From an uncultured virus (IMG/VR IMGVR_UViG_3300031996_000002) (taxonomy: Duplodnaviria > Heunggongvirae > Uroviricota > Caudoviricetes), in IMG/VR virus record IMGVR_UViG_3300031996_000002: a DNA stretch of 20,000 nt. The stretch is one strand, 5' to 3'. The first letter of the stretch is position 1. Every line of letters begins with the position of its first letter. A program made the translations under genes and the position numbers. Below are positions 3,280 to 20,000 of this stretch, piece by piece. The notes under the pieces are model-generated. The model was not told the origin of the DNA. It worked only from the letters and a program-made list of their open reading frames with translations, and made no database searches.

Positions 3280-4119
3280 CTAGAACGCTCCGGTGTTGAG
3301 CCGCCGCTGCAGGGCGGAGATGGTGACCGGACCGGCGATGCCGTCCGGGGTGACCTTGAGGCGGCGCTGGACGCCCTTCCAGGTGACCGGCCCCAAGATG
3401 CCGTCCACGCTGACCCCCACGACCTTCTGGACCGCCCTGATCAGCAGGCTGGGCCGGGAGATGACCCCGTCGACCGGGGTGTGCAGGATCTGCTGCCAGC
3501 GAGCGATGGTGCGCACCCCCAGGATCCCGTCCACGGTCAGCTGGGCCACGAACGGCTTGGCCGGGTACTTGGGCTTGGCCGGGGTCGGCGGGGTGGCGGG
3601 CAGGTTGGCGTGCACCAGGGTCAGGAAGAAGTTGACCGGGAAGTTCGGGCCCGGGTCCCAGTGGGTGGAGCGCTTGAACACCCGGGACACCTGGACGTGG
3701 GTGGTGATGCCCTTGGTCTTGCCATCGGCCAGCTGGGCGTCGGTCAGGTAGGAGGCCGGGATCTTGTAGGCGGCACACCAGTTGGCCACCTCGATGGCCC
3801 CCCGGGTCAGGATCGCCTGGGAGGACGCGTCGTCCCACTGCCCGGTGGTCTGCCCGGCTCGACCGGCCATCTCCAGCTGCAGCCCATCGGCGTTGGCTCC
3901 CGGGGCGGCCCAGGCGGTGTCGTTGTCGTCCACGTAGCGACAGGTGGAGTCGGTGTCCACGCCCAGGTGCGCGCTGGCCTGGGTGGTGGGCTTGGCGAAG
4001 TAGTTGCCCACCGCCTCGGCGACCGAGCCGTCCTCGTCGGTCTCCATGGTGTGCAGCACGATCACCCGGATCGGGGAGATCCGGCCCTCGTACTTGTTGG
4101 GGCTGTAGATCGTGCTCAT
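3280..4119 (-). CDS. Endolysin: N-acetylmuramoyl-L-alanine amidase with C-terminal peptidoglycan-binding repeats (279 aa)
   Basis: Amidase motifs IVLHTME, ASAH, LEM, TTH, HWDPG, then a Pro-rich linker and four DG-(I/V)...Q repeats (e.g. VDGILGVRTIARWQ). ATG at 4119 has GGAG upstream and an ATGA overlap. Confidence 0.92.
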   Translation of the reverse strand: MSTIYSPNKYEGRISPIRVIVLHTMETDEDGSVAEAVGNYFAKPTTQASAHLGVDTDSTCRYVDDNDTAWAAPGANADGLQLEMAGRAGQTTGQWDDASSQAILTRGAIEVANWCAAYKIPASYLTDAQLADGKTKGITTHVQVSRVFKRSTHWDPGPNFPVNFFLTLVHANLPATPPTPAKPKYPAKPFVAQLTVDGILGVRTIARWQQILHTPVDGVISRPSLLIRAVQKVVGVSVDGILGPVTWKGVQRRLKVTPDGIAGPVTISALQRRLNTGAF

Positions 4120-5510
4120 CGGATTCTCCGGATCGCGTCGGGCGGACACTTGCGCAGGCGACCACGCCTCTGTCCTGAGGATCCGGCCACGTGCAACTCA
4201 CTCGGATCCGGGCCCATCTTGGAGACCTCCGAACGGATGCCATCCCAGGGCTGGTAGGACTTGTTCACCTTGTGGTCTCGATAGGCCGCGACGCCCACAC
4301 CAGCTCCTACGGTGCCGCCCGCGGCATACCGGATGGCTCGGTTCCGGCGCTTGCGTCGCCTCCAGTCGACGTACTGGTTGCCGTGGAACGCATCACCGGG
4401 AGTGCCAAAGTCCGGCTTGGGCTCAGGGGCCTTGTATCCCCAGGCCGGGGAGTAGAAGTGTTGGCCCGGACCCAGTCTCTTGTCGTCCTCCGTCTTGATC
4501 CGTGCGCCCCGAGCGATGGCGATTTTGTCCTGGACCATGCGGTAGTCACCGGCTTCCCGGGGGCTGAGACCTGAGCCAACGAGATGAGAAAGCATCTGGT
4601 ACCCCGGGTCGGAGGCCGCCGCCGCGTATCCGCTGTGGGCGCTCGCTTCGCCCGCACCAGGCTGGATGCGGAAGTAGGACGCCCCGGTCATGTCGGCCCT
4701 GGCCTCCTCGCTGCCCCGCTTGCCGTTGAGGTGGTTCTGGAAGGTACGGTACGAGGAGCGCTTGGGGGTCAGATGGGCTATCTCGTGGGCCAGGGTCTGC
4801 GCGTCGGTGTCAGCGGGGGCAACGATGTAGCGTTCGCCCCGGCGACCGCCCAAGGTCACGGCGTAGGCAAGAGCGTTGCGGTCGATCTTCCCCGGATTGG
4901 CCTGGATGAGGGTGATCTTCCCGCGCTTGGTCTGGATGGTCCGAGTCGGCTGGCCCTCGTGGATGTTGATCGCATCCCGCATGCTGCTCAGGTACCGGCG
5001 ATAGGTCACGGCGTTGTTGGGGTCCACCTCGCCGGTGGCCGTGTTGAACCGGATCCGCTGCTTGCCCTTCTTGCCCATCCGGGTGGCCTCATAGCCATGG
5101 GAAGAGCGCAGCTTGGCGCCTCGACGCAGCGCTTCAGCGCCCGCCTCCGTGGCCTTGACGTACCCCTGGCCGGGGATGAAGGACTTGGCCACCGCCGGGC
5201 GCAGCCGCCCCTGTCCGCTGGCGGTCTCGCGGATCAGCTTGTCCTTGTCGTTGAGGCTGGACACGTCGTAGGAGACGCTGCGGATGGTCTCGGCCGCCTT
5301 GGTGCGTCCGGTGGTGATCACCTTGGAGCCCACCCGCTTGACGGTGGGCAGGTGCCGATCCACCAGAGGCCGCGGGGTGGGCTTGCGCCGCTTGGCGGCA
5401 TACGGCTCGACCCGGTCGGCCACCCGGGAGAGCTTGACCGTCCAGTGCGCCCCAGCCACGTGTGGGATGTCCCGTGGGGCCATCTTCTCCACACCCAGGT
5501 CGTCATTCAC
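4116..5510 (-). CDS. Basic 464-aa protein with a zincin-like HExxH metallopeptidase motif, possibly virion-packaged
   Basis: QTLAHEIAHL (4773-4787) followed by EEARAD; Gly/Ala-rich hydrophobic C-terminal segment; GTGA and ATGA overlaps at both ends. Confidence 0.75.
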   Translation of the reverse strand: MNDDLGVEKMAPRDIPHVAGAHWTVKLSRVADRVEPYAAKRRKPTPRPLVDRHLPTVKRVGSKVITTGRTKAAETIRSVSYDVSSLNDKDKLIRETASGQGRLRPAVAKSFIPGQGYVKATEAGAEALRRGAKLRSSHGYEATRMGKKGKQRIRFNTATGEVDPNNAVTYRRYLSSMRDAINIHEGQPTRTIQTKRGKITLIQANPGKIDRNALAYAVTLGGRRGERYIVAPADTDAQTLAHEIAHLTPKRSSYRTFQNHLNGKRGSEEARADMTGASYFRIQPGAGEASAHSGYAAAASDPGYQMLSHLVGSGLSPREAGDYRMVQDKIAIARGARIKTEDDKRLGPGQHFYSPAWGYKAPEPKPDFGTPGDAFHGNQYVDWRRRKRRNRAIRYAAGGTVGAGVGVAAYRDHKVNKSYQPWDGIRSEVSKMGPDPSELHVAGSSGQRRGRLRKCPPDAIRRIR

Positions 5511-5788
5511 GTCTTCGTCCTGTGCTTTCGGGGGTTGGAGGGATGGTCGTCAAAGCTCTTGGCGAACCGGTTGGCATACCGGGCGCCGAACCACAGCCAG
5601 GAGCCGGTGAAGAAGAAGACCAGGGAGAACACCGCGGACACCCAGACCCACCAGCTGGGCACCGAGGCGTCGGAGGCGATCCGCAGCGCATCAGAGCCGC
5701 GGACCACCCCCTGGATCCAGAAGGCTCCGGCCAACACGCGCAGCGCGACGATGAGCACGTGAATCAAGCGGTACTGGTCGGAGCTCAT
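5507..5788 (-). CDS. Membrane protein (93 aa, two hydrophobic segments)
   Basis: Hydrophobic stretches LIHVLIVALRVLAGAFWI and WWVWVSAVFSLVFFFTGSWLWFG; fills the gap between coupled genes. Confidence 0.75.
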   Translation of the reverse strand: MSSDQYRLIHVLIVALRVLAGAFWIQGVVRGSDALRIASDASVPSWWVWVSAVFSLVFFFTGSWLWFGARYANRFAKSFDDHPSNPRKHRTKT

Positions 5789-7359: not shown

Positions 7360-7639
7360 GGGGGGCCGCCTTCTTGATCGCCGCGTACCCGGCCAGCGCC
7401 AGGGACTGCTCGGCCTTGTGGGTCTTGGGTGGGGTGGTGCCCTTGAGCAGGGCGTCGAGCACGGCGTGGATGTTGTAGTGGCCGGTGTCGCAGACCAGCA
7501 CCAGGTTGGTGGGCACCGTGGGGCCGCCGTACTCCTGGGGCCAGATGTGGTGCTTGACGGTGCGCAGTGGGCGCGGCCAGTGGTACTTGTGCACCTCGCA
7601 GGAGTTGCCCGCCAGGGTCAGGTGCGGCTCGTGGCTCAT
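7352..7639 (-). CDS. Small HNH endonuclease (95 aa)
   Basis: HHIWPQEYGGPTVPTNLVLVCDTGHYNIH core; 8-nt ATGCCTAA overlap with the peptidase gene. Confidence 0.85.
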   Translation of the reverse strand: MSHEPHLTLAGNSCEVHKYHWPRPLRTVKHHIWPQEYGGPTVPTNLVLVCDTGHYNIHAVLDALLKGTTPPKTHKAEQSLALAGYAAIKKAAPHA

Positions 7640-7643
7640 GGCC

Positions 7644-8243
7644 TCAGCCAGCTCTGACGATCAGCAGGTCGAACCCGGAGATCGCCCAGTTCAGGGTTCC
7701 GGCATAGACCATGGGGCGGAAGGTGGTCTGCGGTCCTGCCACCAGGGTCGAGGATCCGGTCAGCACCAGCTGCTCGTTGGCGAACAGCCAGGAGTAGTCC
7801 ACCGAGTAGTACGCCGCGTAGGGGGAGGAACCCTGCGGGCGCTGCGCGCCGCCCCAGTCCAGCGAGGCGTAGATCATCTTCTCCACGCTGCCCGCCGGGG
7901 GCGCGGAGGCGGTGCCCACGTAGACCGACAGGTTCATCGTGTACAGCCCGTTCTCGGCGCAGACCACGCGCCCCGAGCCATCCACGGTGGCCACGCTGGT
8001 ATTGACCGCCTGTGCCTCGGCGGGCACATAGGTGTAGTTGTTGGCGGTCACCGGGTAGGTCGTCAGCGAGTCCGAGCCCTGGGCCCGGAAGGTGGCCAGA
8101 GCCCCCACCCTGGAGCCACCGGGGGTCATCGTCCAGCTGCCCACCCCGGCATCCCAGGCGTAGGCGTTGGCGGCGGTCTTGTCCGCCAGCTTGCGGTTGG
8201 CCCAGTAGTCGCCGTAGGTGAACGAGACCTGCTCTTCACTCAT
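7644..8243 (-). CDS. Beta-rich hypothetical, possible virion structural protein (199 aa)
   Basis: ATG at 8243 in ATGA overlap with the portal stop, AGGAAGAAGG upstream; rich in T/S/G/Y/V. This is the real part of track ORF 7644..9482. Confidence 0.75.
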   Translation of the reverse strand: MSEEQVSFTYGDYWANRKLADKTAANAYAWDAGVGSWTMTPGGSRVGALATFRAQGSDSLTTYPVTANNYTYVPAEAQAVNTSVATVDGSGRVVCAENGLYTMNLSVYVGTASAPPAGSVEKMIYASLDWGGAQRPQGSSPYAAYYSVDYSWLFANEQLVLTGSSTLVAGPQTTFRPMVYAGTLNWAISGFDLLIVRAG

Positions 8244-10174
8244 CTCTTTGCCTTCTTCTTGGTCTTGGGCGGGGTGACACCGTTGCGGGCCTTGATCTTG
8301 GCCTCGCGCTCCTTGCGCTTGAGCTCGGCTTCCTTGAGCCTGGTCTCCCGCGCCGCGTCGGCGTCCTTGCCCTGCTGGTCGCGCTTGAAGTCGGCGTCCT
8401 TGGCCTGCTGGTCGCGGGCGTGGTCGCGCTCCTTCATGGCCTGGTCGACCTGCTTGCCCTGCAGGTCCAGCTCGCGGCTCTGCTGGTCGTTGGCGGCCTG
8501 GGCCTGGGCGTTGGGGTCCTGGGCCTGCAGCTGCATCTGGGCCTGCTGCTGCTGCAGCTCCGTCTGCTGCTGCTGGGCCATCTGCTGGGCCTGGGAGGCC
8601 TGCACCTCGGGGTGCATCGCGGCCCGGGCCTGACCCACCTGCTCGTTGACCGCCTGGTCGGTGGCCATCGCCTCGTTGGGCTGCTCGGCACTCATCGCGG
8701 CCTGCTGCGGGCTGTGCCCCTGGGCCACCAGCTGCTCCTGCTGGGCCATGCCCTCCAGGTCCATGTTGGACTGGGCGTAGTTCATCAGGTTGTTCTGGGA
8801 GGCCATCTGGCGGCGCAGGTCCAGCACCTGCTCGGGCATCTCGGGCAGGTGGGCGGTCTCGCGCAGGAACTTCTCCAGGTCGGGGTCGGGGAAGAACTCC
8901 ATCCCCAGGCCCGCCATCTGGGTCATGAACTGCCCCAGCTGGGCCAGGTCGGGCGGGTCGACGTTGTTCGGCACGATCCGCGGCAGCTCGTCCAGCTTCC
9001 AGGCGTTGAGCTCGAACAGCCGGGGGATGGCGTGCCGGTTGAAGGTGTCGGCGATGGCCTCGGCGATGGTGTTCAGCGCGGCCCGGAAGATGCCGGTCTT
9101 GTCCACGTGCATCGAGTAGGAGCCGACCCCCTCGTGGCCGACCAGGATGAAGTCGGCCAGGGTGGTCATCAGGATGCGCTGCTCGTAGCGCTGGATGATC
9201 GCCGAGGTGTCGAAGCTGCGCGCCCCACCCGAGCTCATCAGCTCGAAGTCGAACATCGGCTGCTTGGTGACCGGGTCGTACTCCAGCGGCAGCACCAGGC
9301 CCTCGTGCTCGTCGCGGCGCACGTTCTGGACCATCCGCTTGAAGGCCTGGAAGGCGTTGTTCTCCCGGGTGCCCTTGGCGGCGTTCATGTAGGAGCTGGG
9401 CACCTTGGCCACCGGCATACCGGCCAGGTCCCGCTCGACGCCGATCGCCTCGAACTCCTCCAGGCGCTTCTTCATGAACCACGGCCGGTAGGAGTTGCGC
9501 AGCAGGCTGCGGCCCTCGGGGTTGCCCTTGTGCAGCCCGGTGCGGAACAGCAGCGACTTGTTGATCGGCAGCACCGTGGTGTCGTAGTACGGCGGGGCGA
9601 TCTGGACCATGGCCTGCACGCCGCCGGTCTCATCGAACATCCAGCGCAGCAGGGTCTCCTGGGACCGGATCGGGATCTTGCGCCAGCCGATCTTGCCGTC
9701 GGTGAACTTGGAGCGCTTGGAGGGGTCCTTCTCCCAGGGCCCGATCCGCTTCTTGTAGACGATCTCGTGCCAGGACCAGCCGTAGACCAGGCAGGACAGG
9801 ATCTCGGAGATCAGGTCGCCCCAGGTGTGCGACATGTCGTCCATGCACTCTTCGAGGAAGTCCGATGCCGCGGTGGCCTCGGGGGTGGTGTCGGAGGACT
9901 CCACCCGCCAGGAGACCTGGCGCAGCAGCTTCTCGATGGCGAACAGCAGCGCCCCCACCATGGGGTCGTTGTCGCTCATCTCGCGGTAGACCTTGACCGC
10001 CTTGCGGCCACGCAGCGCGGGCAGGAACTCCTCGTCGATGATCCCGCTGGCCCGCTTCAGGCCGGTGCCGCCCAGCTCGGCAAAGGGCATGGCGGGCACC
10101 CCGCCAGAGGCCTGCGGGTCGCTTTGGTCGTCGTAGCGCAGGACGTCGGCGTAGTTCATTTGCTGATCAGGCAC
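8240..10174 (-). CDS. Portal protein (DUF935/Mu gp29-like) with a long Gln/Ala-rich charged C-terminal extension (644 aa)
   Basis: YREMSDNDP, YGWSWHEIVY, GNPEGRSLLR...W..K...E...ER...GMP, GSYS motifs; GTG start with AGGAG; downstream of the terminase. Confidence 0.88.
   Translation of the reverse strand: MPDQQMNYADVLRYDDQSDPQASGGVPAMPFAELGGTGLKRASGIIDEEFLPALRGRKAVKVYREMSDNDPMVGALLFAIEKLLRQVSWRVESSDTTPEATAASDFLEECMDDMSHTWGDLISEILSCLVYGWSWHEIVYKKRIGPWEKDPSKRSKFTDGKIGWRKIPIRSQETLLRWMFDETGGVQAMVQIAPPYYDTTVLPINKSLLFRTGLHKGNPEGRSLLRNSYRPWFMKKRLEEFEAIGVERDLAGMPVAKVPSSYMNAAKGTRENNAFQAFKRMVQNVRRDEHEGLVLPLEYDPVTKQPMFDFELMSSGGARSFDTSAIIQRYEQRILMTTLADFILVGHEGVGSYSMHVDKTGIFRAALNTIAEAIADTFNRHAIPRLFELNAWKLDELPRIVPNNVDPPDLAQLGQFMTQMAGLGMEFFPDPDLEKFLRETAHLPEMPEQVLDLRRQMASQNNLMNYAQSNMDLEGMAQQEQLVAQGHSPQQAAMSAEQPNEAMATDQAVNEQVGQARAAMHPEVQASQAQQMAQQQQTELQQQQAQMQLQAQDPNAQAQAANDQQSRELDLQGKQVDQAMKERDHARDQQAKDADFKRDQQGKDADAARETRLKEAELKRKEREAKIKARNGVTPPKTKKKAKR
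8357..8416 (-). repeat. Imperfect direct repeat with a 33-nt period in the portal tail (RDQQAKDAD / RDQQGKDAD)
   Basis: gtcggcgtccttgccctgctggtcgcg at 8357-8383 and gtcggcgtccttggcctgctggtcgcg at 8390-8416. Confidence 0.8.
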
Positions 10175-11865: not shown

Positions 11866-12090
11866 TCACTCGAACAGCGAGGGGGTCTGCTGGCGCAGCT
11901 GGTAGATCCGGCTGTTCACCGCGCTGGGCTTGATCCCCAGCACCTGGGACAGCACCCCGGCGCTGATCCCGGCCTCCTTGGCGGCCAGGGTCAACCGGTC
12001 CACCTCGGCCCGGGCCTTGGACTCGGCCCAGTGCTGGTGACGCAGCTCGGTGAGCAGGTCGTGTTGGGTCTGGCTCAGCTCAACTGCCAA
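11866..12090 (-). CDS. Helix-turn-helix protein (74 aa)
   Basis: TTG start with GGAGG 7 nt upstream; AAKEAGISAGVLSQVLGIKPSAVNSRI HTH pattern. This is the real part of track ORF 11866..12723. Confidence 0.75.
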   Translation of the reverse strand: MAVELSQTQHDLLTELRHQHWAESKARAEVDRLTLAAKEAGISAGVLSQVLGIKPSAVNSRIYQLRQQTPSLFE

Positions 12091-14321
12091 CTCAGGTCCT
12101 CCGTCTCGGTGGAGCGCACGTCGCCCTCGGGACGCCAGTGCGAGGAGCCATGCAGGTGCTCGGTGCCCTGCTCGATCTGGCGGGCCATCCAGGTGGTGTC
12201 GGTGCGTGGCAGGCCCACCGGGGAGACCACCGGGAACTTGTGGCTGACCAGCTTCCAGGCCAGTGCCGCGCTGCACACGCTGTCGGGCAGGTGGTAGTCC
12301 TTGCCCCGGGAGTACAGGTCCTCCACCGAGGCGTACAGGTGGTCGCGGTACATGCTGCCGATCCGCGGGGCGACGATCTTGCCGTTCTCCACCCCGGTGA
12401 CGTACTCGGACAGCATGTCGTCTCGCTCGCGCCCGGCCATCACGAAGTCGCGCACCCGGCCGTCGATCAGGTCGGAGACCACCCGGCCCAGCCCGGTGGC
12501 GTCGTGGATGCCCTGGGCCCGGTAGCGCTTCTGCAGGTCGTTGAACTTGCCGATCATCTTGGGGTAGGGCAGCCGGTTGAAGGACACGAAGTAGACCATC
12601 TCGATGGGCTCGTAGGTCACATCCCAGACACTGATGACCGTCTTGTCCACGGCCTGGGCCCAGTCCGCGGCGATGACGTAGTCCCGGTCGTCCTTGGGGT
12701 CGGCGGTCTTGTACTCCTCCCACTCCCGGCTGGACTTGATCGGCTCGGGGCAGGGCAGGGAGAAGACCTGCTCGACCGAGGAGGAGTCGAAGGCACGGTT
12801 GCCGATGGAGGGCTCGCCCAGCTCGTACTCCACCCGCCAGCGCTCCCGGGAGACCTCGCGCTTCTTCTGGGTGACGAACTCCTCGGACAGCCAGCCGTCC
12901 TTGGCGTACATGGTGTCCAGGTAGCAGTTGTGGACCACCACGCCCTCGGCCACGAACTCGTGGTCTTCTTCCACCCCAATGTCCCAGACCGGTACGGTAG
13001 CACCATGACTGATACCGAGAACCGTATGCGTGGTCAAGCTCGGGTACGGCAGTCCATCTCGATCGACATGAACGGCTGTTGGCTGTGGATCGGAGCTAGA
13101 GACAAGGACGGCTACGGGATCGTCAACCGCAAGACCTGGGGGCATGCCAAGGCCCATCGGCTGTCCTACGCCTGTTTCATCGGCCCCATCGATGGGGAGA
13201 TCGACCACCTGTGTCGAGTCCACGCTTGTGTCAACCCCAGCCACCTGGAGGACACGAGCCATCGGACGAACATGCTCCGCGCACCCCACATCGCCGCACA
13301 GCTGGCACGCACGCACTGCCCCCGGAACCATGAGTACACCCCGGAAAATACCTACGTGGCCCCCAGTGACAACCGCAGGCACTGCCGTACGTGCGTCCGA
13401 GAGCAGACCAAGAACTGGCGAGCTCGGCTCAAGGCTGTCGGCGCGGGCCCATCCTGAGGGGGTCGCCACCTTGTGCTCGGGAGTAAGTCGCAACGTCTTG
13501 CCGTTGCTCAGCTGGATGCTAATGGTGGTTTTGTAGCCCATCCGGCTGACGTGCTGGACAGGCTTCCACCCCCCTCGGGTGAGCATCTTGTCGGTGAGCA
13601 GCACGTCCTCGATGTTCTTGATCCCGGCCTGGGTGGTCACCTGGGTGCCCTCGGCCAGGGACCACTCCATGACCGGCAGGCCCTCGTCCTCGAACCGGGC
13701 CATCTCCTTCATCATGGTGCCGTCGGCGTACTGCAGCGTGGACACCATGGTGGTCTGCTGGGGGATGCGCACCCCGAGCCAGTTGTCCTGGGGCATCGGC
13801 TGGCCCTTGGCGGACTCCAGGATGTTCTCGTCCATCTCGTCGATCTCATCCAGCAGCAGCCGCTGCGGGTGCGGGCCACGCACGCTGCGCTCGGAGGCGG
13901 TCAGCGGGCGGATCACCGCGTCGTTGTGCAGCTCGATCCGGGTGGTCTGGTCCTTGCGGATCATGTACTTGGGCGCGCTGTGGAAGGACCACATCTTCTT
14001 CATGTGCTCCAGGGCGTTGATGGCCTGCATCTCCGAGCCACCCACGATGTTGTTGTCCGCCCCGAGCACCACCGCCTGGGTCAGCCCCAGGCAACTCATC
14101 ATCTGGGTCTTGCCGGACAGGCCTCGACTGCCACGCACCAGCACCTGGGGCTCACGGGCGAAGAAGGCCGTGGCGAAGGCGTCGAACGGCGCCTGGTGGT
14201 GCGGGCAGTGCTTGCCGCGGGGGATGGTCACGTTCCACAGCGCCTGGACCAAGGAGTAGAGCTCGTCGTCATTCCTGGGCGGCCGGGTCAGCTGATAGGA
14301 GCTGGGGAACGTGACCGTCAT
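12075..14321 (-). CDS. terL: Terminase large subunit precursor containing an intein (748 aa; 503 aa after splicing)
   Basis: Walker A GSRGLSGKT, Walker B LLLDEID, motif III VST; nuclease motifs IAADWA..D, HDATGLG, HLPDS. Spliced junction reads PVMEW-CYLDT. Confidence 0.92.
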   Translation of the reverse strand: MTVTFPSSYQLTRPPRNDDELYSLVQALWNVTIPRGKHCPHHQAPFDAFATAFFAREPQVLVRGSRGLSGKTQMMSCLGLTQAVVLGADNNIVGGSEMQAINALEHMKKMWSFHSAPKYMIRKDQTTRIELHNDAVIRPLTASERSVRGPHPQRLLLDEIDEMDENILESAKGQPMPQDNWLGVRIPQQTTMVSTLQYADGTMMKEMARFEDEGLPVMEWSLAEGTQVTTQAGIKNIEDVLLTDKMLTRGGWKPVQHVSRMGYKTTISIQLSNGKTLRLTPEHKVATPSGWARADSLEPSSPVLGLLSDARTAVPAVVTGGHVGIFRGVLMVPGAVRACQLCGDVGCAEHVRPMARVLQVAGVDTSVDSTQVVDLPIDGADETGVGQPMGLGMPPGLAVDDPVAVLVSSSDPQPTAVHVDRDGLPYPSLTTHTVLGISHGATVPVWDIGVEEDHEFVAEGVVVHNCYLDTMYAKDGWLSEEFVTQKKREVSRERWRVEYELGEPSIGNRAFDSSSVEQVFSLPCPEPIKSSREWEEYKTADPKDDRDYVIAADWAQAVDKTVISVWDVTYEPIEMVYFVSFNRLPYPKMIGKFNDLQKRYRAQGIHDATGLGRVVSDLIDGRVRDFVMAGRERDDMLSEYVTGVENGKIVAPRIGSMYRDHLYASVEDLYSRGKDYHLPDSVCSAALAWKLVSHKFPVVSPVGLPRTDTTWMARQIEQGTEHLHGSSHWRPEGDVRSTETEDLSWQLS
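12993..12998 (+). promoter_or_regulatory. Candidate -10 element for leaderless expression of the antisense HNH gene
   Basis: TACGGT (TANNNT), then 6 nt, then the ATG at 13005; no SD. Same geometry as upstream of terL and the RHH gene. No clear -35. Confidence 0.5.
13005..13457 (+). CDS. HNH homing endonuclease with a C-terminal Cys/His zinc-binding motif (150 aa), nested antisense within the terL intein
   Basis: GCWLWIG..DKDGYG, AHRLSY..FIGPI, IDHLCRVHACVNPSHLE..SHRTN, then HCPRNHEYTPENT..RHCRTC. Aligns motif by motif with the free-standing HNH ending at 19234. Confidence 0.92.
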   Translation: MTDTENRMRGQARVRQSISIDMNGCWLWIGARDKDGYGIVNRKTWGHAKAHRLSYACFIGPIDGEIDHLCRVHACVNPSHLEDTSHRTNMLRAPHIAAQLARTHCPRNHEYTPENTYVAPSDNRRHCRTCVREQTKNWRARLKAVGAGPS

Positions 14322-14327
14322 GTTTAC

Positions 14328-14333
14328 AGTCTA
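14328..14333 (-). promoter_or_regulatory. Candidate -10 element for a leaderless terL transcript
   Basis: TAGACT-GTAAAC-ATG; no SD before the terL start; no clear -35. Confidence 0.5.
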
Positions 14334-14342
14334 TCCACCCTG

Positions 14343-14438
14343 TCAGCCGATCTTGATCGGGTGTCCCACCAGCAGGAACAGCAGCAGGATCAAGATGACC
14401 ACGACGATGAACCAGACAAAGCCCGGAACTTGGCGCAT
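14343..14438 (-). CDS. 31-aa single-pass membrane peptide
   Basis: Strong GAGGAGG SD; MRQVPGFVWFIVVVILILLLFLLVGHPIKIG; fills the gap between the tail gene and terL. Confidence 0.75.
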   Translation of the reverse strand: MRQVPGFVWFIVVVILILLLFLLVGHPIKIG

Positions 14439-14457
14439 GGGTTAGCCCTCCTCTCTC

Positions 14458-15453
14458 TTACTCGGTCCATTTCAGGTACACCCGGCCGCTGACGGCGTTG
14501 GCGCCGCCCAGGGCGTACAAGTACTTGGGATCGGTATAGGAGGTGGTCCCGGCATACAGCCCGAAGCCCTTGTAGGTGCCGCCCAGGAAGCTGGCCCAGT
14601 AGCCACTGGGGACGGCAAAGGTGTCGGTCTGCCCGCGGGTCAGGGTGCCCACGTAGGCCCCGTTGGAGTCGTTGGCCTGCGGGCTGCCGCTGGGCTGGGC
14701 GGTGGCGGTGTGGGCGGTCAGGTAGACGTTGGCACCCCCGGGGACGCCATGCACAGTGTTGGCCCGGGTGATGGTGATCGAGAAGGCCTCGATGGTCTTG
14801 GCCTTGGCCAGCAGGGCGCTGATCCGGGTGGAGTAGAACCACAGCCCGTGGTAGGCGTCCCCGCCCTGGTAGACGTAGTCGTTGTCGGTGCGCCAGTAGC
14901 CGCTCACGTCGTTCCACGAGGCCGAGTCGGTGGCGTAGACGTAGGCGCTCTTGGTCACCGTGGTGGGGGCCGAGGCGATGGTCGGCACGGTGTACTTCAG
15001 CAGCCGAGGGGTGGAGTAGTTGCCGCTGGTGTCGATGGCAAAGACCGCCCAGTACAGCACCGTGCCGCTGGTCTGGTTGGCATAGCTGGCGCTGACCGTG
15101 GCCGAGGGCCCGGCTGCCACGCTGCCACCGCCCCCAGAGGTCGGCGAGGTCGGGTAGCCGGTGGTGGACCAGCGGAAGGCGATCGAGGCCATGTCGGCAT
15201 CGGCCGGGGCCTTGGCGGTCATGGTCAGCGTGGAGCCGCTCAGCGTGGCGGTCAGCGACAACGGCATGGCCGGGGGCGTGACATCCCGCTCGTACAGCAG
15301 CGTCCAGCTGGCCGCGGCACGCTGGTAGATCTTGGCCACCGGTCGCTGCCCGGAGCCGGACTGCACGCTGATCGCGGTGTCGTTGCGCCACCGGATCGAG
15401 GTCCCCACGTCGGTGGGGGTGGCCACCAGGGTCCACAGCTGGCCGGTGGACAT
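14458..15453 (-). CDS. Minor tail protein-like (331 aa) with an FnIII/Ig-like segment
   Basis: DVTPP...YWAVFAIDTSGNYS (FnIII-like), YQG...GLWFY; rich in T/S/A/G; TGATG overlap. Confidence 0.75.
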   Translation of the reverse strand: MSTGQLWTLVATPTDVGTSIRWRNDTAISVQSGSGQRPVAKIYQRAAASWTLLYERDVTPPAMPLSLTATLSGSTLTMTAKAPADADMASIAFRWSTTGYPTSPTSGGGGSVAAGPSATVSASYANQTSGTVLYWAVFAIDTSGNYSTPRLLKYTVPTIASAPTTVTKSAYVYATDSASWNDVSGYWRTDNDYVYQGGDAYHGLWFYSTRISALLAKAKTIEAFSITITRANTVHGVPGGANVYLTAHTATAQPSGSPQANDSNGAYVGTLTRGQTDTFAVPSGYWASFLGGTYKGFGLYAGTTSYTDPKYLYALGGANAVSGRVYLKWTE

Positions 15454-15791: not shown

Positions 15792-16147
15792 TAGAGCACT
15801 CCTTGGATGGTGATCAGGTCCCCGGTGCTGGCACCGGGCAGGGTCGACAAGGTGGTGGTCATCCCGGCCACGAACAGGGCCGGGCTGAGCCCGGTGGCGC
15901 TGCCGGTCTGGATCCACACCCCATGACCGATGGCGCTCAGGGTGTGGCTCAGGGTCCAGTCGCCGCTGGGTGCCGAGCCGATCAGGGTGAAGATGCCGCG
16001 CACCAGAGTCAGTCCCCCGGTGTAGACCGCGCTCAGCTCCCCGGTGCAGTCCACCGGGATGCCGCCACGGGACAGCACGTAGTCCAGCGGCAGCGCCGAG
16101 ACCTGGGCGGGGGCGCGCTGGCTCAGACGCAGTTGACGGTCCAGCAT
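15791..16147 (-). CDS. Hypothetical, probable structural protein (118 aa)
   Basis: ATG at 16147 in TGATG overlap; beta-rich composition; located in the tail-like cluster. Confidence 0.7.
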   Translation of the reverse strand: MLDRQLRLSQRAPAQVSALPLDYVLSRGGIPVDCTGELSAVYTGGLTLVRGIFTLIGSAPSGDWTLSHTLSAIGHGVWIQTGSATGLSPALFVAGMTTTLSTLPGASTGDLITIQGVL

Positions 16148-16851
16148 CAGCCACCCAGATCCGCGAAGGTGGTGGTCGCTGAGAGCGTTCCTGCGGGCCC
16201 GGGAACGGTGCTGGCCGGTCCCTCTGGGCCAGCCGGTCCTGCGGGCCCCACAGGGCCAACTGGGCCCGGTCCCACGGCACACACGGCCAGTCGGGCGTCG
16301 GCCAACGACAGCGCGCTGCCCTGGGTGTGGGTCACCGTGACATCGAGCCAGGCGCTGGTGCCCACCGAGACCAGCACCGTGGCCCCGCCGACCTTCATCG
16401 TCTTGGCCACCGGTGCCTGGCAGCTTCCGGCCACGCTGGTGGTGTTGTACTGCAGGTCGATCTCCCGGTAGCCCACCGCGGTGCCCGAGGGCTGGGCCCA
16501 GGCAGCCCAGCCGGACACGAAGTAGTTGCCCGCGGGCAGCAGCAGCTTGGTCGAGGCGCCGCTGTTGTCGATCGCCCCGCTGATGTGGTCCAGCACGGTG
16601 GACAGGAACTTCAGCTTGGTCGGGGTGTTGTCCGCCACGCTGATCGCCCCACCCAGGGTCAAGATGGTGCCGTAGTCGCCGACCAGGCCCATCGGGCCGG
16701 TGGCTCCGGTGGCGCCGGTGTCGCCCTGGGCACCCTGCGGGCCCATCGGGCCAACCTCGCCCTGAGGTCCCTCGGGGCCGATGCCCTGGATCGCCCCGGT
16801 GCGCACCTCGATGGTGTCCCCGGTGATCAGACGGATGACCTGGTTGCTCAT
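16147..16851 (-). CDS. Collagen-like (Gly-X-Y) minor tail/fibre protein (234 aa)
   Basis: Two G-X-Y tracts (GPEGPQGEVGPMGPQ... and GPVGPVGPAGPAGPEGP) flank a beta-rich domain. Confidence 0.85.
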   Translation of the reverse strand: MSNQVIRLITGDTIEVRTGAIQGIGPEGPQGEVGPMGPQGAQGDTGATGATGPMGLVGDYGTILTLGGAISVADNTPTKLKFLSTVLDHISGAIDNSGASTKLLLPAGNYFVSGWAAWAQPSGTAVGYREIDLQYNTTSVAGSCQAPVAKTMKVGGATVLVSVGTSAWLDVTVTHTQGSALSLADARLAVCAVGPGPVGPVGPAGPAGPEGPASTVPGPAGTLSATTTFADLGG

Positions 16852-18830: not shown

Positions 18831-19237
18831 AGGCGTTCTCCATGGTCGAGGCGTTGAGCCGAGATCAACTGCTCCTGGGTCAGCCGTCTGCTGCCCAGGT
18901 CGAACATCTTGCGGGCCATCTCGATGAAGCTGTTGAGCTGGCCGGTGCGCACCCGGTAGTGCGGGTCGCCCTTCTTGATCGAGCCGTTCTGCTCCCCCTC
19001 GAAGATGAGGATCTCCAGCTCCCGGGCTCGGGCGTAGTATGCCGCGGCCACCTCCATCAGCTGTAGATAGGGGCTGTCCACCGGTGGGTCCACCCTCCCC
19101 AGTAGAACGTCGGTGTACTCCTCGATCTCGCGGTTGATCCGGTCCACCGTGGGCAGCCCGGCAGGCAGCGGCACACTGGTCAGCCGATGTCCGAACTGGA
19201 CGTGGCTGGGGTGTGCTGCGGTGATCCTGATGCTCAT
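18827..19237 (-). CDS. Hypothetical helical protein (136 aa)
   Basis: ATGA and GTGA overlaps at both ends, AAGGAG SD, G/C-ending codons. Confidence 0.8.
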   Translation of the reverse strand: MSIRITAAHPSHVQFGHRLTSVPLPAGLPTVDRINREIEEYTDVLLGRVDPPVDSPYLQLMEVAAAYYARARELEILIFEGEQNGSIKKGDPHYRVRTGQLNSFIEMARKMFDLGSRRLTQEQLISAQRLDHGERL

Positions 19238-19656
19238 GCGGCTCTCCTTGCCCTGCTTCGATCCCTACGGCACGCCTTGCAGTAGCGGTTGGGATGTCCT
19301 CCGGCCTGGATCGAGATGCCGGTGTTCTGAGGGCTGTAGTCGTGCCCCTGTGGGCACTGTGCCACCTGTTGGTGGCGCCACCTGGTGATGCTGCGCTTCA
19401 TGTTCTCCCGATGTGTCACCTGCTCTAGGTGGTCGGGGTTCACACAGGCACGGTTGCGGCATACGTGGTCCAGCTCCATGCCCGGCTGCACCGGGCCCAC
19501 GTGCCACACGTAGCTGAACCGATGGGCAAGCTGAGAGTGCCCAGGGTCGGGGGAGAGCACTGCGTAGCCATCGGGGTTGACGTACGCCGTCCATACCCAG
19601 CAGCCACGCTCATCCAGTTCGATGCGCTCCAGGAGGCGCTCAATCGCTGGTCGCAA
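19234..19656 (-). CDS. Free-standing HNH homing endonuclease with a C-terminal zinc-binding motif (140 aa; alternative start 19710)
   Basis: GCWVW...DGY, AHRFSY...GP, LDHVCRNRACVNPDHLE.VTHREN, CPQGH...RYCKAC. The TTG at 19656 has AGGGAG 8 nt upstream. Confidence 0.88.
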   Translation of the reverse strand: MRPAIERLLERIELDERGCWVWTAYVNPDGYAVLSPDPGHSQLAHRFSYVWHVGPVQPGMELDHVCRNRACVNPDHLEQVTHRENMKRSITRWRHQQVAQCPQGHDYSPQNTGISIQAGGHPNRYCKACRRDRSRARRAA

Positions 19657-20000
19657 TGCGCGCTCTCCCTTCTGGCCATCGAGCACCTTCGCAGATCGAG
19701 CTGTACTCACACCACCTGTACTTGCCCTCCCCGTTGAGGCACTCGGGCAGCATGGGTATCAGCTCTCTTTGTGATGTTGATTCGTTCAACCTTTCAAGCT
19801 CTTCTCGTACCGATTTTATGACTTTTTCATCCCGTGGGACAAGGATCTCTTTGAGTTGTTGATCGTTCTTCGACTCGTACACCGCGTGGAACGCCTCGAT
19901 GTCGGTGGCCAGCATGTACGCGTGCATCTGCAGCACGTGCTCGGGCTTGGCTCCGAAAGTGTTCACCTGGCCGAAGCCGAAGGTGTTGATACTCTTGAGC
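19640..20000 (-). CDS. Cas4-family / PD-(D/E)xK exonuclease, C-terminal part (begins beyond the window)
   Basis: Frame is open to the window edge: LKS...H..QMHAYM...VYESK and a C-terminal Cys cluster C...WCEYSSIC. Confidence 0.75.
   Translation of the reverse strand, partial: LKSINTFGFGQVNTFGAKPEHVLQMHAYMLATDIEAFHAVYESKNDQQLKEILVPRDEKVIKSVREELERLNESTSQRELIPMLPECLNGEGKYRWCEYSSICEGARWPEGRARIATSD
19813..19842 (-). promoter_or_regulatory. Candidate sigma70-type promoter embedded in the exonuclease 3' end
   Basis: TTGTCC-N18-TAAAAT within an abruptly A/T-rich tract upstream of the HNH gene. Confidence 0.4.

Follow-up and report, generated by a model that had tools for sequence, protein, structure and literature searches.

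A codon-aligned HNH_3 endonuclease gene on the opposite strand of a terminase intein in an uncultured soil phage: a probable composite selfish element

The 20,000-nucleotide stretch of DNA considered here (the window) belongs to an uncultured phage of the Caudoviricetes known from soil metagenomes (IMG/VR record IMGVR_UViG_3300031996_000002); its GC content is 66%, and its genes lie on the minus strand. One of them, terL, encodes the precursor of the large terminase subunit (12075..14321, minus strand; 748 amino acids including an intein, assigned from the open reading frame (ORF) and from homology). Its class-1 intein (12927..13661, minus strand) is probably one half of a composite selfish element residing in the terL gene of a soil actinophage: a splicing domain resembling that of a mini-intein, with the loop filled by a gene for an HNH_3 (His-Me finger) endonuclease that is read from the opposite strand, codon-aligned with the intein (13005..13457, plus strand, 150 amino acids). 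An intein whose homing endonuclease is a separate antisense gene had been postulated in an original prediction drawn from the window alone, and most of that proposal has stood up to the comparisons described below.

TerL belongs to a family that is known from metagenomes only. Pfam returns weak matches to TerL_ATPase and Terminase_6C, and for P0004, a homologue without an intein, the PHROG search gives family 9, ‘terminase large subunit’, at 5e-9; searching the PDB with the P0004 sequence yielded a single row at chance level. The ‘phages’ collection contained no match to terL, neither for its DNA (megablast) nor for its protein (tblastn). Relatives with E<=0.001 numbered 659 among 7999 scored candidates. 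Among the 119 other homologues listed, 29 reach at least 640 residues and, because of this length, must carry one or more inserts, the remainder measuring 421-515 residues. In the window, the insert separates an N-extein (13662..14321; TerL residues 1-220, ending in ...MEW) from a C-extein that starts at Cys466 (12078..12926). It extends over 245 residues, from Ser1 (Ser221 of the precursor, codon 13659-13661) to a terminal His-Asn (Asn465, 12927-12929), followed by Cys+1 at 12924-12926, and the single ORF of 748 codons runs across it with 0 stops.

The splicing blocks A, B, F and G and the HN/Cys+1 junction are intact, as had been predicted, and legible in the translation: Ser1 in block A, the TxxH motif of block B (‘TPEH’), block F (‘VWDIGVE..HEF’) and the end ‘VVVHN|C’, at positions conserved across 24 intein-bearing homologues. 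The Pfam profile Intein_splicing matches at 6.1e-9 with 36.3 bits, just over its cut-off of 35.8. An AlphaFold model resolves the intein into three parts. The N-terminal splicing lobe (13395..13661; intein residues 1-89, blocks A and B) consists of beta strands with a pLDDT score (for predicted local distance difference test) of 78-93, and the C-terminal lobe (12927..13049; residues 205-245, blocks F and G) has strands at residues 209-244 and a pLDDT of 60-92, the two lobes lying at about 90 on the whole. The linker in between (13050..13394; residues 90-204) is predicted without secondary structure at a pLDDT of 27-35 and is the antisense image of the endonuclease core. A middle part of about 125 residues lacking any recognisable motif had been expected; it is indeed structureless, and the model (pLDDT about 30) sets its length at 115 residues. 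Compared with the PDB, the intein model gave 41 matches at E<=0.001, all of them inteins or Hint domains, the best being the splicing domain of the Mtu RecA intein (4.7e-8), and the gp41-1 mini-intein was matched with a template modelling (TM) score of 0.87-0.88. Judging from the model, the intein amounts to a mini-intein whose usual endonuclease loop is padded with 115 filler residues, in line with the nonsense linker that had been proposed. Splicing of the TerL precursor is inferred from the intact motifs and from TerL being essential.

The plus-strand ORF encodes a complete endonuclease. It matches Pfam HNH_3 at 1.3e-6 (28.3 bits, cut-off 24.8) and PHROG 826, ‘HNH endonuclease’, at 6e-44, so that a profile search of both strands finds Intein_splicing on the minus strand and HNH_3 on the plus strand, each above its cut-off. 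By tblastn, the protein matched 511 phage records (best E 4e-26, all below 60% identity), mostly of Mycobacterium, Gordonia, Streptomyces and Arthrobacter phages, where annotation treats the ORFs in question as free-standing HNH endonucleases. All 15 HNH sequences compared share H68, C70, C75, H80, C105, C127 and C130, and N77 and H109 are conserved in at least 90%; this set takes in the catalytic His and Asn and the zinc-binding Cys and His residues, the role of each individual residue being presumed. AlphaFold, supplied with 15 aligned sequences, folds the HNH protein with a mean pLDDT of 90.1, as compared with about 30 for the same DNA in the other frame. For this model, VIA-align places two homing enzymes first, I-PpoI (Z 5.9) and I-HmuI (Z 5.6), then the related SMAD MH1 and NFI domains (Z 5.2 and 4.7) and after them a row at Z 3.0, all of them under the advised Z of 8; Foldseek against the PDB gave no match at E<=0.001. 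With structural Z values this modest, assignment to the HNH family rests on its sequence.

Both reading frames share one register. As had been claimed, each HNH codon is the precise reverse complement of a terL codon: the HNH stop TGA complements TCA of Ser289, the Ser codon of a conserved ‘SGW’ in the N-terminal lobe, and the ATG complements CAT of His439, just before block F. Both ends of the gene run into the splicing domain, HNH residues 1-15 lying over intein residues 205-219 and HNH residues 131-150 over intein residues 70-89. These zones of overlap are confidently predicted in both AlphaFold models. The HNH core, Cys25-Cys130, fits the structureless linker exactly.

The same arrangement recurs in other contigs. 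A total of 197 loci with TerL and intein alignments was assembled (85 viral, 78 metagenome and 34 genome contigs), with an intein match by tblastn in 113 and an HNH match in 23. The HNH gene lies antisense inside the intein in 20 of these 23; in the other three (L007, L068, L069) it is read from the strand of terL and lies just upstream of that gene, which has no intein. Removal of duplicates left 12 complete elements in 11 other contigs (two in L013, one each in L064, L079, L081, L082, L088, L089, L091, L095, L106 and L177); further copies are partial or damaged (L085, L094, L098, L110), and L107 duplicates L106. In 13 of 13 complete elements, including that of the window, the HNH codons are aligned with those of the host gene, and over the length of the HNH gene 0 stops fall in the host frame, as against 2-13 in the other two frames. 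Identity of the HNH proteins to the window copy is 28-44%. The insertion site of the window, denoted here as W|C, is also used in L013, L081, L082 and L095; elsewhere in this TerL family, a second site follows ‘QYPDK’ (L064), and a third precedes ‘SVE.LYS’ (L013, L079). L106 and L177 carry the composite in other TerL families. In L088, L089 and L091 it sits in a protein of more than 1000 amino acids with an N-terminal domain resembling a head maturation protease (PHROG 18299, 3e-20; PHROG 2774, 3e-55), the host ORFs spanning from about position 1400 to the contig end, and terminase genes are therefore not its only hosts.

Some individual loci deserve description in their own right. The terL of L013 (the same contig as L083 and L090) harbors two inteins at different sites (3643-4284 and 4885-5622), each with its own antisense HNH gene, and the two HNH genes are of different subtypes. 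In L106 (51-3809), a TerL of another PHROG family contains an ordinary intein with an in-frame LAGLIDADG domain and, after it, an antisense-HNH intein. L094, a contig of 1.8 kb, shows antisense HNH matches in two frames (1256-1773; 1256-1660 and 1372-1773); either this copy has suffered a frameshift and may be decaying, or the contig contains a sequencing error. Related inteins in phages of 46-49% GC (L103, L121, L126, L128, L130, L132-L135, L145, L146, L150) have linkers of about 130 residues without a recognisable in-frame domain. Neither in these linkers nor in L158 (29% GC) was a codon-aligned antisense ORF found, nor an HNH match by tblastn; the sole profile hit was a weak one in L103, on the same strand in another frame (E 0.0034).

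Codon composition and the pattern of substitutions indicate which frame over the linker is the gene. Read in the HNH frame, the HNH core has a GC content at third codon positions (GC3) of 0.817, which drops to 0.565 when the intein frame is read, and the N- and C-exteins reach 0.955 and 0.968 in the terL frame. Over whole ORFs, GC3 is 0.77 for the embedded HNH gene and 0.75 for a free-standing HNH gene of the window, both below the core genes, as expected for imported genes. The other long plus-strand ORFs of the window behave as shadows of minus-strand genes: 9 of the 11 tested show high GC at first positions (GC1) with lower GC3, and the remaining two (7485-8633, 15803-16471), which are ambiguous, are in phase with the GC3 of minus-strand genes, which leaves the HNH gene as the only convincing one on the plus strand, as originally stated. 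Between L088 and L089, differences at HNH codon positions 1/2/3 are 9/6/30 over 107 core codons (chi-square p 1e-5), and a second comparison within the L088/L089/L091 trio gives 5/2/16 (chi-square p 8e-4); averaged over 78 pairs, the difference is 0.47/0.46/0.61. The ratio of nonsynonymous to synonymous substitution rates (dN/dS, NG86) in the trio amounts to 0.09-0.14 for the HNH reading, as against 1.7-1.9 for that of the linker (1.2-1.9 across the relatives), and deeper pairs including the window point in the same direction. Purifying selection thus acts on the HNH frame, as shown in relatives of the window, which is the opposite of constraint on the minus-strand linker, the outcome that would have spoken against the gene.

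The terL frame leaves its own trace in the codons of the HNH gene. In a codon-aligned antisense frame, stops are made by TTA, CTA and TCA only. Such codons occur in 0 of 13 embedded HNH genes, compared with 9 of 11 free-standing homologues of similar GC (Fisher p 4e-5; 2e-4 with the L088 trio counted once); at the rate of the free-standing set, which has 16 in 1663 codons, 22 would be expected in the embedded set. From this contrast it follows that the open terL frame is actively maintained by selection across the family. The original prediction had ascribed the open frame to the rarity of stop-making codons at high GC; high GC does help, but family-wide it is selection that keeps the frame open. 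With two open frames, a constrained HNH reading and a structureless intein reading of the linker, the element is dual-coding in the sense originally proposed.

Contigs of independent soil sequencing runs support the structure of the locus. They cross both intein junctions (12654-13091 and 13544-14216) and cover the inside of the HNH gene (13112-13271) with 0-1 differences; among the contigs of four runs, none lies over 13296-13538 and no single one spans the whole stretch. An inversion produced by misassembly, which had been named as a possible refutation, is disposed of by these contigs, given that they come from independent runs and pass both junctions. The wider notion of a gene relic in decay, of an antisense frame open by chance or of an assembly product is highly improbable for the plus-strand ORF. 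It could draw on the fact that long open antisense frames are the rule in a window of 66% GC, and on the HNH gene of L094 being split over two frames, yet family scores far beyond chance, the confident fold, a dN/dS of about 0.1, catalytic and zinc residues that do not vary, the recurrence of the arrangement in 16 other contigs and the junction-crossing contigs all speak against it.

The distribution of the composite is sporadic, and its phylogeny is discordant with that of the host gene. The exteins closest to those of the window (P0004 with 83% and P0005 with 81% identity) are both intein-less, and in the extein tree the window groups with these two proteins with a support of 99. At 71% extein identity, P0008 and P0012 possess a different intein subtype with a splicing domain 43% identical. 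P0060, P0064 and P0069, with exteins only 47-48% identical to the window, nevertheless carry the same intein subtype (all with Ser1), with splicing domains 52-58% and linkers 41-45% identical. For the five exteins with the intein subtype of the window, a group defined from the intein before the tree was built, a single clade is rejected by the approximately unbiased (AU) test (p 2e-74). Identical or near-identical exteins with different inteins or linkers at the same site (P0003/P0011, P0054/P0061, P0072/P0077) look like cases of recent intein replacement. The collection of homologues proposed with the original prediction yielded intein-less, mini-intein and antisense-HNH versions, all at the W|C site, the mini-inteins being those of P0045 (135 residues) and P0051 (163 residues). 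In soil runs X3 and X4, neither of them flagged as the source, contigs of 4.7 and 20 kb align to terL and skip 12870-13680 (811 nucleotides), with 76 other nucleotides in between; the difference is exactly the 735 nucleotides of the intein, and these contigs therefore represent a diverged intein-less allele in the same soil samples. The junction DNA of 53 distinct intein-less alleles carries 1.36-1.40 bits, compared with 1.04-1.23 in the flanks, a weak signal. By these comparisons, the element is mobile, moving among terL alleles and to other sites and genes.

A course of events can be proposed for such an element. TerL would be translated through the linker, and the whole 245-residue insert would be removed by protein splicing, so that the linker need only be stop-free and harmless. 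The HNH protein would be made from its own plus-strand transcript, possibly a leaderless mRNA starting from a TANNNT hexamer built into the codons of block F, and its expression would be independent of the late terL gene, as had been suggested. The endonuclease would then cut or nick the intein-less terL of co-infecting phages near the W|C junction, and recombinational repair would copy intein and HNH gene together into the cut allele, a process denoted as homing. Most likely, the composite goes back to a free-standing HNH gene that inserted itself into a mini-intein in reverse orientation. Insertions surviving as a contiguous intein would be those in the single register able to stay stop-free. 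The origin by invasion put forward in the original prediction is made natural and plausible by the existence of free-standing homologues and of mini-inteins at the same site.

Several observations weigh against this interpretation. The dN/dS values stem from the L088 group and from deeper pairs, not from a close relative of the window. For the window alone, 1.4 stop-making codons would be expected, with a probability of about 0.24 of finding none, and a null derived from extein (terL) codon usage gives P(0)=1 for the window; with a P(0) of 0.007 for L079 and 0.006 for L082, this null points to selection only in the relatives of lower GC. The free-standing HNH genes were judged the apter control, since HNH genes have a lower GC3 than terL. 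Signals for expression are likewise scarce: a sigma-70 scan of 12000-14600 found no plus-strand promoter, no clear Shine-Dalgarno sequence precedes the HNH ATG, and the only terminator-like site (13979-13993, plus strand) is at chance level. The start at 13005 itself is backed by homology, the aligned ATG being the sole possible start in L064 and L081 (with a stop 4 and 1 codons upstream, respectively), and the N-terminal HNH helix is confidently modelled. A -10-like hexamer of the form TANNNT, TACGGT, is situated at 12993..12998 on the plus strand, at -12..-7 from the ATG. A TANNNT just upstream of an ATG is the geometry of actinobacterial leaderless mRNAs, and the hexamer is put forward, purely hypothetically, as promoter of a leaderless HNH transcript. 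TACGGT occurs at the same position in L088, L089 and L091, and TACCCT in L064, at a TANNNT frequency on these strands of 0.0004-0.007 per position. In total, the hexamer is found in 5 of 13 elements from three lineages and is absent from the remaining 8, L081 having AAGGA six bases before the ATG in its place; moreover, it was noticed post hoc and may ride on a conserved ‘ATVPV’ peptide of the other frame.

Also adverse is the phylogeny of the endonucleases: in a tree of 24 rows and 140 columns, embedded HNHs interleave with free-standing ones (5 changes), and the AU test (p 0.07) does not separate one capture from several. This would suit the idea that the HNH gene is an independent homing gene with another target, merely co-resident with the intein and using its linker as a safe landing place. 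Free-standing homologues do occupy many unrelated positions, e.g. between recE and recT, beside lysin B, and between terS and terL. The phage itself has a free-standing paralogue of 158 amino acids (19234..19710, minus strand; PHROG 826, 4e-50; 40% identity to the embedded HNH, E 7e-29), which carries one TTA/CTA/TCA codon and adjoins a fragment of a Cas4-like exonuclease (19640-19966). In the nearest record to the window (G001, 47 kb), only the embedded copy is present, the record ending before the paralogue. Mere co-residence is nonetheless unlikely when similarity is followed across distant exteins, where that of the linker tracks that of the splicing domain (74% splicing domain and 46% linker for P0003, the nearest intein-bearing relative of the window, 58% and 45% for P0060), in comparison to only about 43% and 30% for closer exteins with other intein types. 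Intein and HNH gene, in addition, recur as a pair with an unchanged register, both at several sites and in a number of genes, and the p of 0.07 means that monophyly of the embedded HNHs is not rejected either.

A further group of adverse observations concerns the terminase. HNH proteins beside terminase genes in cos phages partner the terminase in packaging. Directly upstream of the intein-less terL in L007 (151-537) and in L068 (222-584) and L069, HNH_3 homologues are encoded on the coding strand, and in Gordonia phage Mcklovin (L206, 532-981) such a gene lies between terS and terL. Going by these positions, some packaging-related role of the HNH protein stays conceivable. A partnership of HNH proteins and terminase is also mentioned in the abstract of PMC3592412. 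That the embedded HNH is an accessory nuclease needed for packaging, kept in terL for linkage and not for homing, is nevertheless very improbable: the closest TerL relatives, P0004 and P0005, lack the intein and hence an embedded HNH, the same composite resides in a protease-domain protein, the family is HNH_3 with homing enzymes (I-PpoI and I-HmuI) as structural neighbours, and most free-standing homologues are found far from terminase genes.

The general architecture of the composite element has already been described, so that the statement of the original prediction that no example was known does not hold. Anti-sense LAGLIDADG and VSR-like ORFs in actinophage inteins, including those of TerL, are reported in a recent preprint (Gosselin, Arsenault, Gogarten, bioRxiv 10.1101/2025.01.02.630785), which traces inteins of the anti-sense LAGLIDADG type back to Gorbalenya 1998 and Gogarten 2002, for DnaX of Synechocystis and a SpoVR-like protein of Chloroflexus. 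The preprint proposes that free-standing endonuclease genes invade inteins; in its main text, HNH is listed in frame only (IPR002711). As far as that text goes, its systems share with the window a continuous intein frame, a structureless in-frame region and an opposite-strand nuclease ORF between splicing blocks, and also free-standing phage relatives of the nuclease, a TerL host, horizontal transfer and an origin by invasion. In contrast to the LAGLIDADG and VSR-like nucleases reported there, the nuclease of the window is of the HNH_3 type, and its family stems from uncultured phages of soil and other environments; to what the preprint's text presents, the codon comparisons add evidence that both strands are under selection. 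No antisense HNH intein was found in the full-text literature, with most subscription journals and the supplementary tables of the preprint outside its scope; the HNH type alone appears to be undescribed. With its HNH gene at the W|C site of TerL, the element falls among the non-canonical inteins, a class that is rare but has been described.

Other known systems differ more clearly. Dassa et al. 2009 (PMC2677866) describe genes fractured by split inteins with a free-standing endonuclease gene, GIY-YIG or Vsr-like, between the halves, and their model, as stated in that article, lets an endonuclease gene that invades an intein either fracture the gene or insert within the intein. Both these fractured genes and the window have a free-standing endonuclease gene inside the coding region of an intein, but the fractured host gene consists of two ORFs with intein halves, whereas terL is unbroken. 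That the window intein remains a single polypeptide is owed to the orientation of the inserted gene, which runs antisense in the only register that can be stop-free. Where inteins contain an in-frame HNH, this domain is part of the intein polypeptide; the HNH of the window is a separate protein from the opposite strand and needs expression signals of its own. Free-standing HNH_3 genes of actinophages (e.g. of Clavibacter phage CMP1 and the Mycobacterium phages Mutaforma13 and Plumbus) belong to the same family, with the same motifs and size and 40-47% identity, but are located between genes on the coding strand, and their antisense frame is evidently not kept open, 9 of 11 carrying TTA, CTA or TCA.

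The remainder of the window gives some indication of the host and of gene order. The annotated gene products include a portal protein, a peptidase, a RuvC-like resolvase and a WhiB-like regulator, the last of which suggests that the host is actinobacterial. In a group of small genes upstream of terL, a minus-strand gene at 16147-16851 encodes a collagen-like or tail-fibre-like protein (22 PHROG matches, best 5e-13); with respect to the genes for head and packaging, this location is unusual. A further minus-strand gene, real by its GC3 phase, occupies 7644-8240 within the 3′ part of a long ORF (7644-9482), with the portal gene (8240-10174) upstream; the whole ORF 7644-9482 has no match in PHROG.

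Through this element, HNH_3 would join the nuclease types able to serve an intein from the opposite strand. It may even be that environmental phages contain antisense-HNH inteins as an extensive class of mobile elements that escapes annotation, dual-coding and selected on both strands, with a -10-like signal for a leaderless mRNA encoded in block F and ongoing replacement by homing in soil phages; this broader view is tentative and, taken as a whole, less likely than not. Gene callers that admit one gene per locus miss such nucleases, and the inteins are filed as ‘decaying’ or ‘mini’, so that censuses of inteins and homing endonucleases in phage metagenomes are biased. About 115 arbitrary residues are apparently tolerated in the endonuclease loop of an intein predicted to be splicing-competent, which is of interest for intein engineering. 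The codon-level tests indicate that the arrangement is upheld by selection on both strands and is no passing accident. For the evolution of inteins, it lends support to a scheme in which the splicing domain came first and the nuclease was captured later, and to repeated colonisation of inteins by free-standing endonuclease genes.

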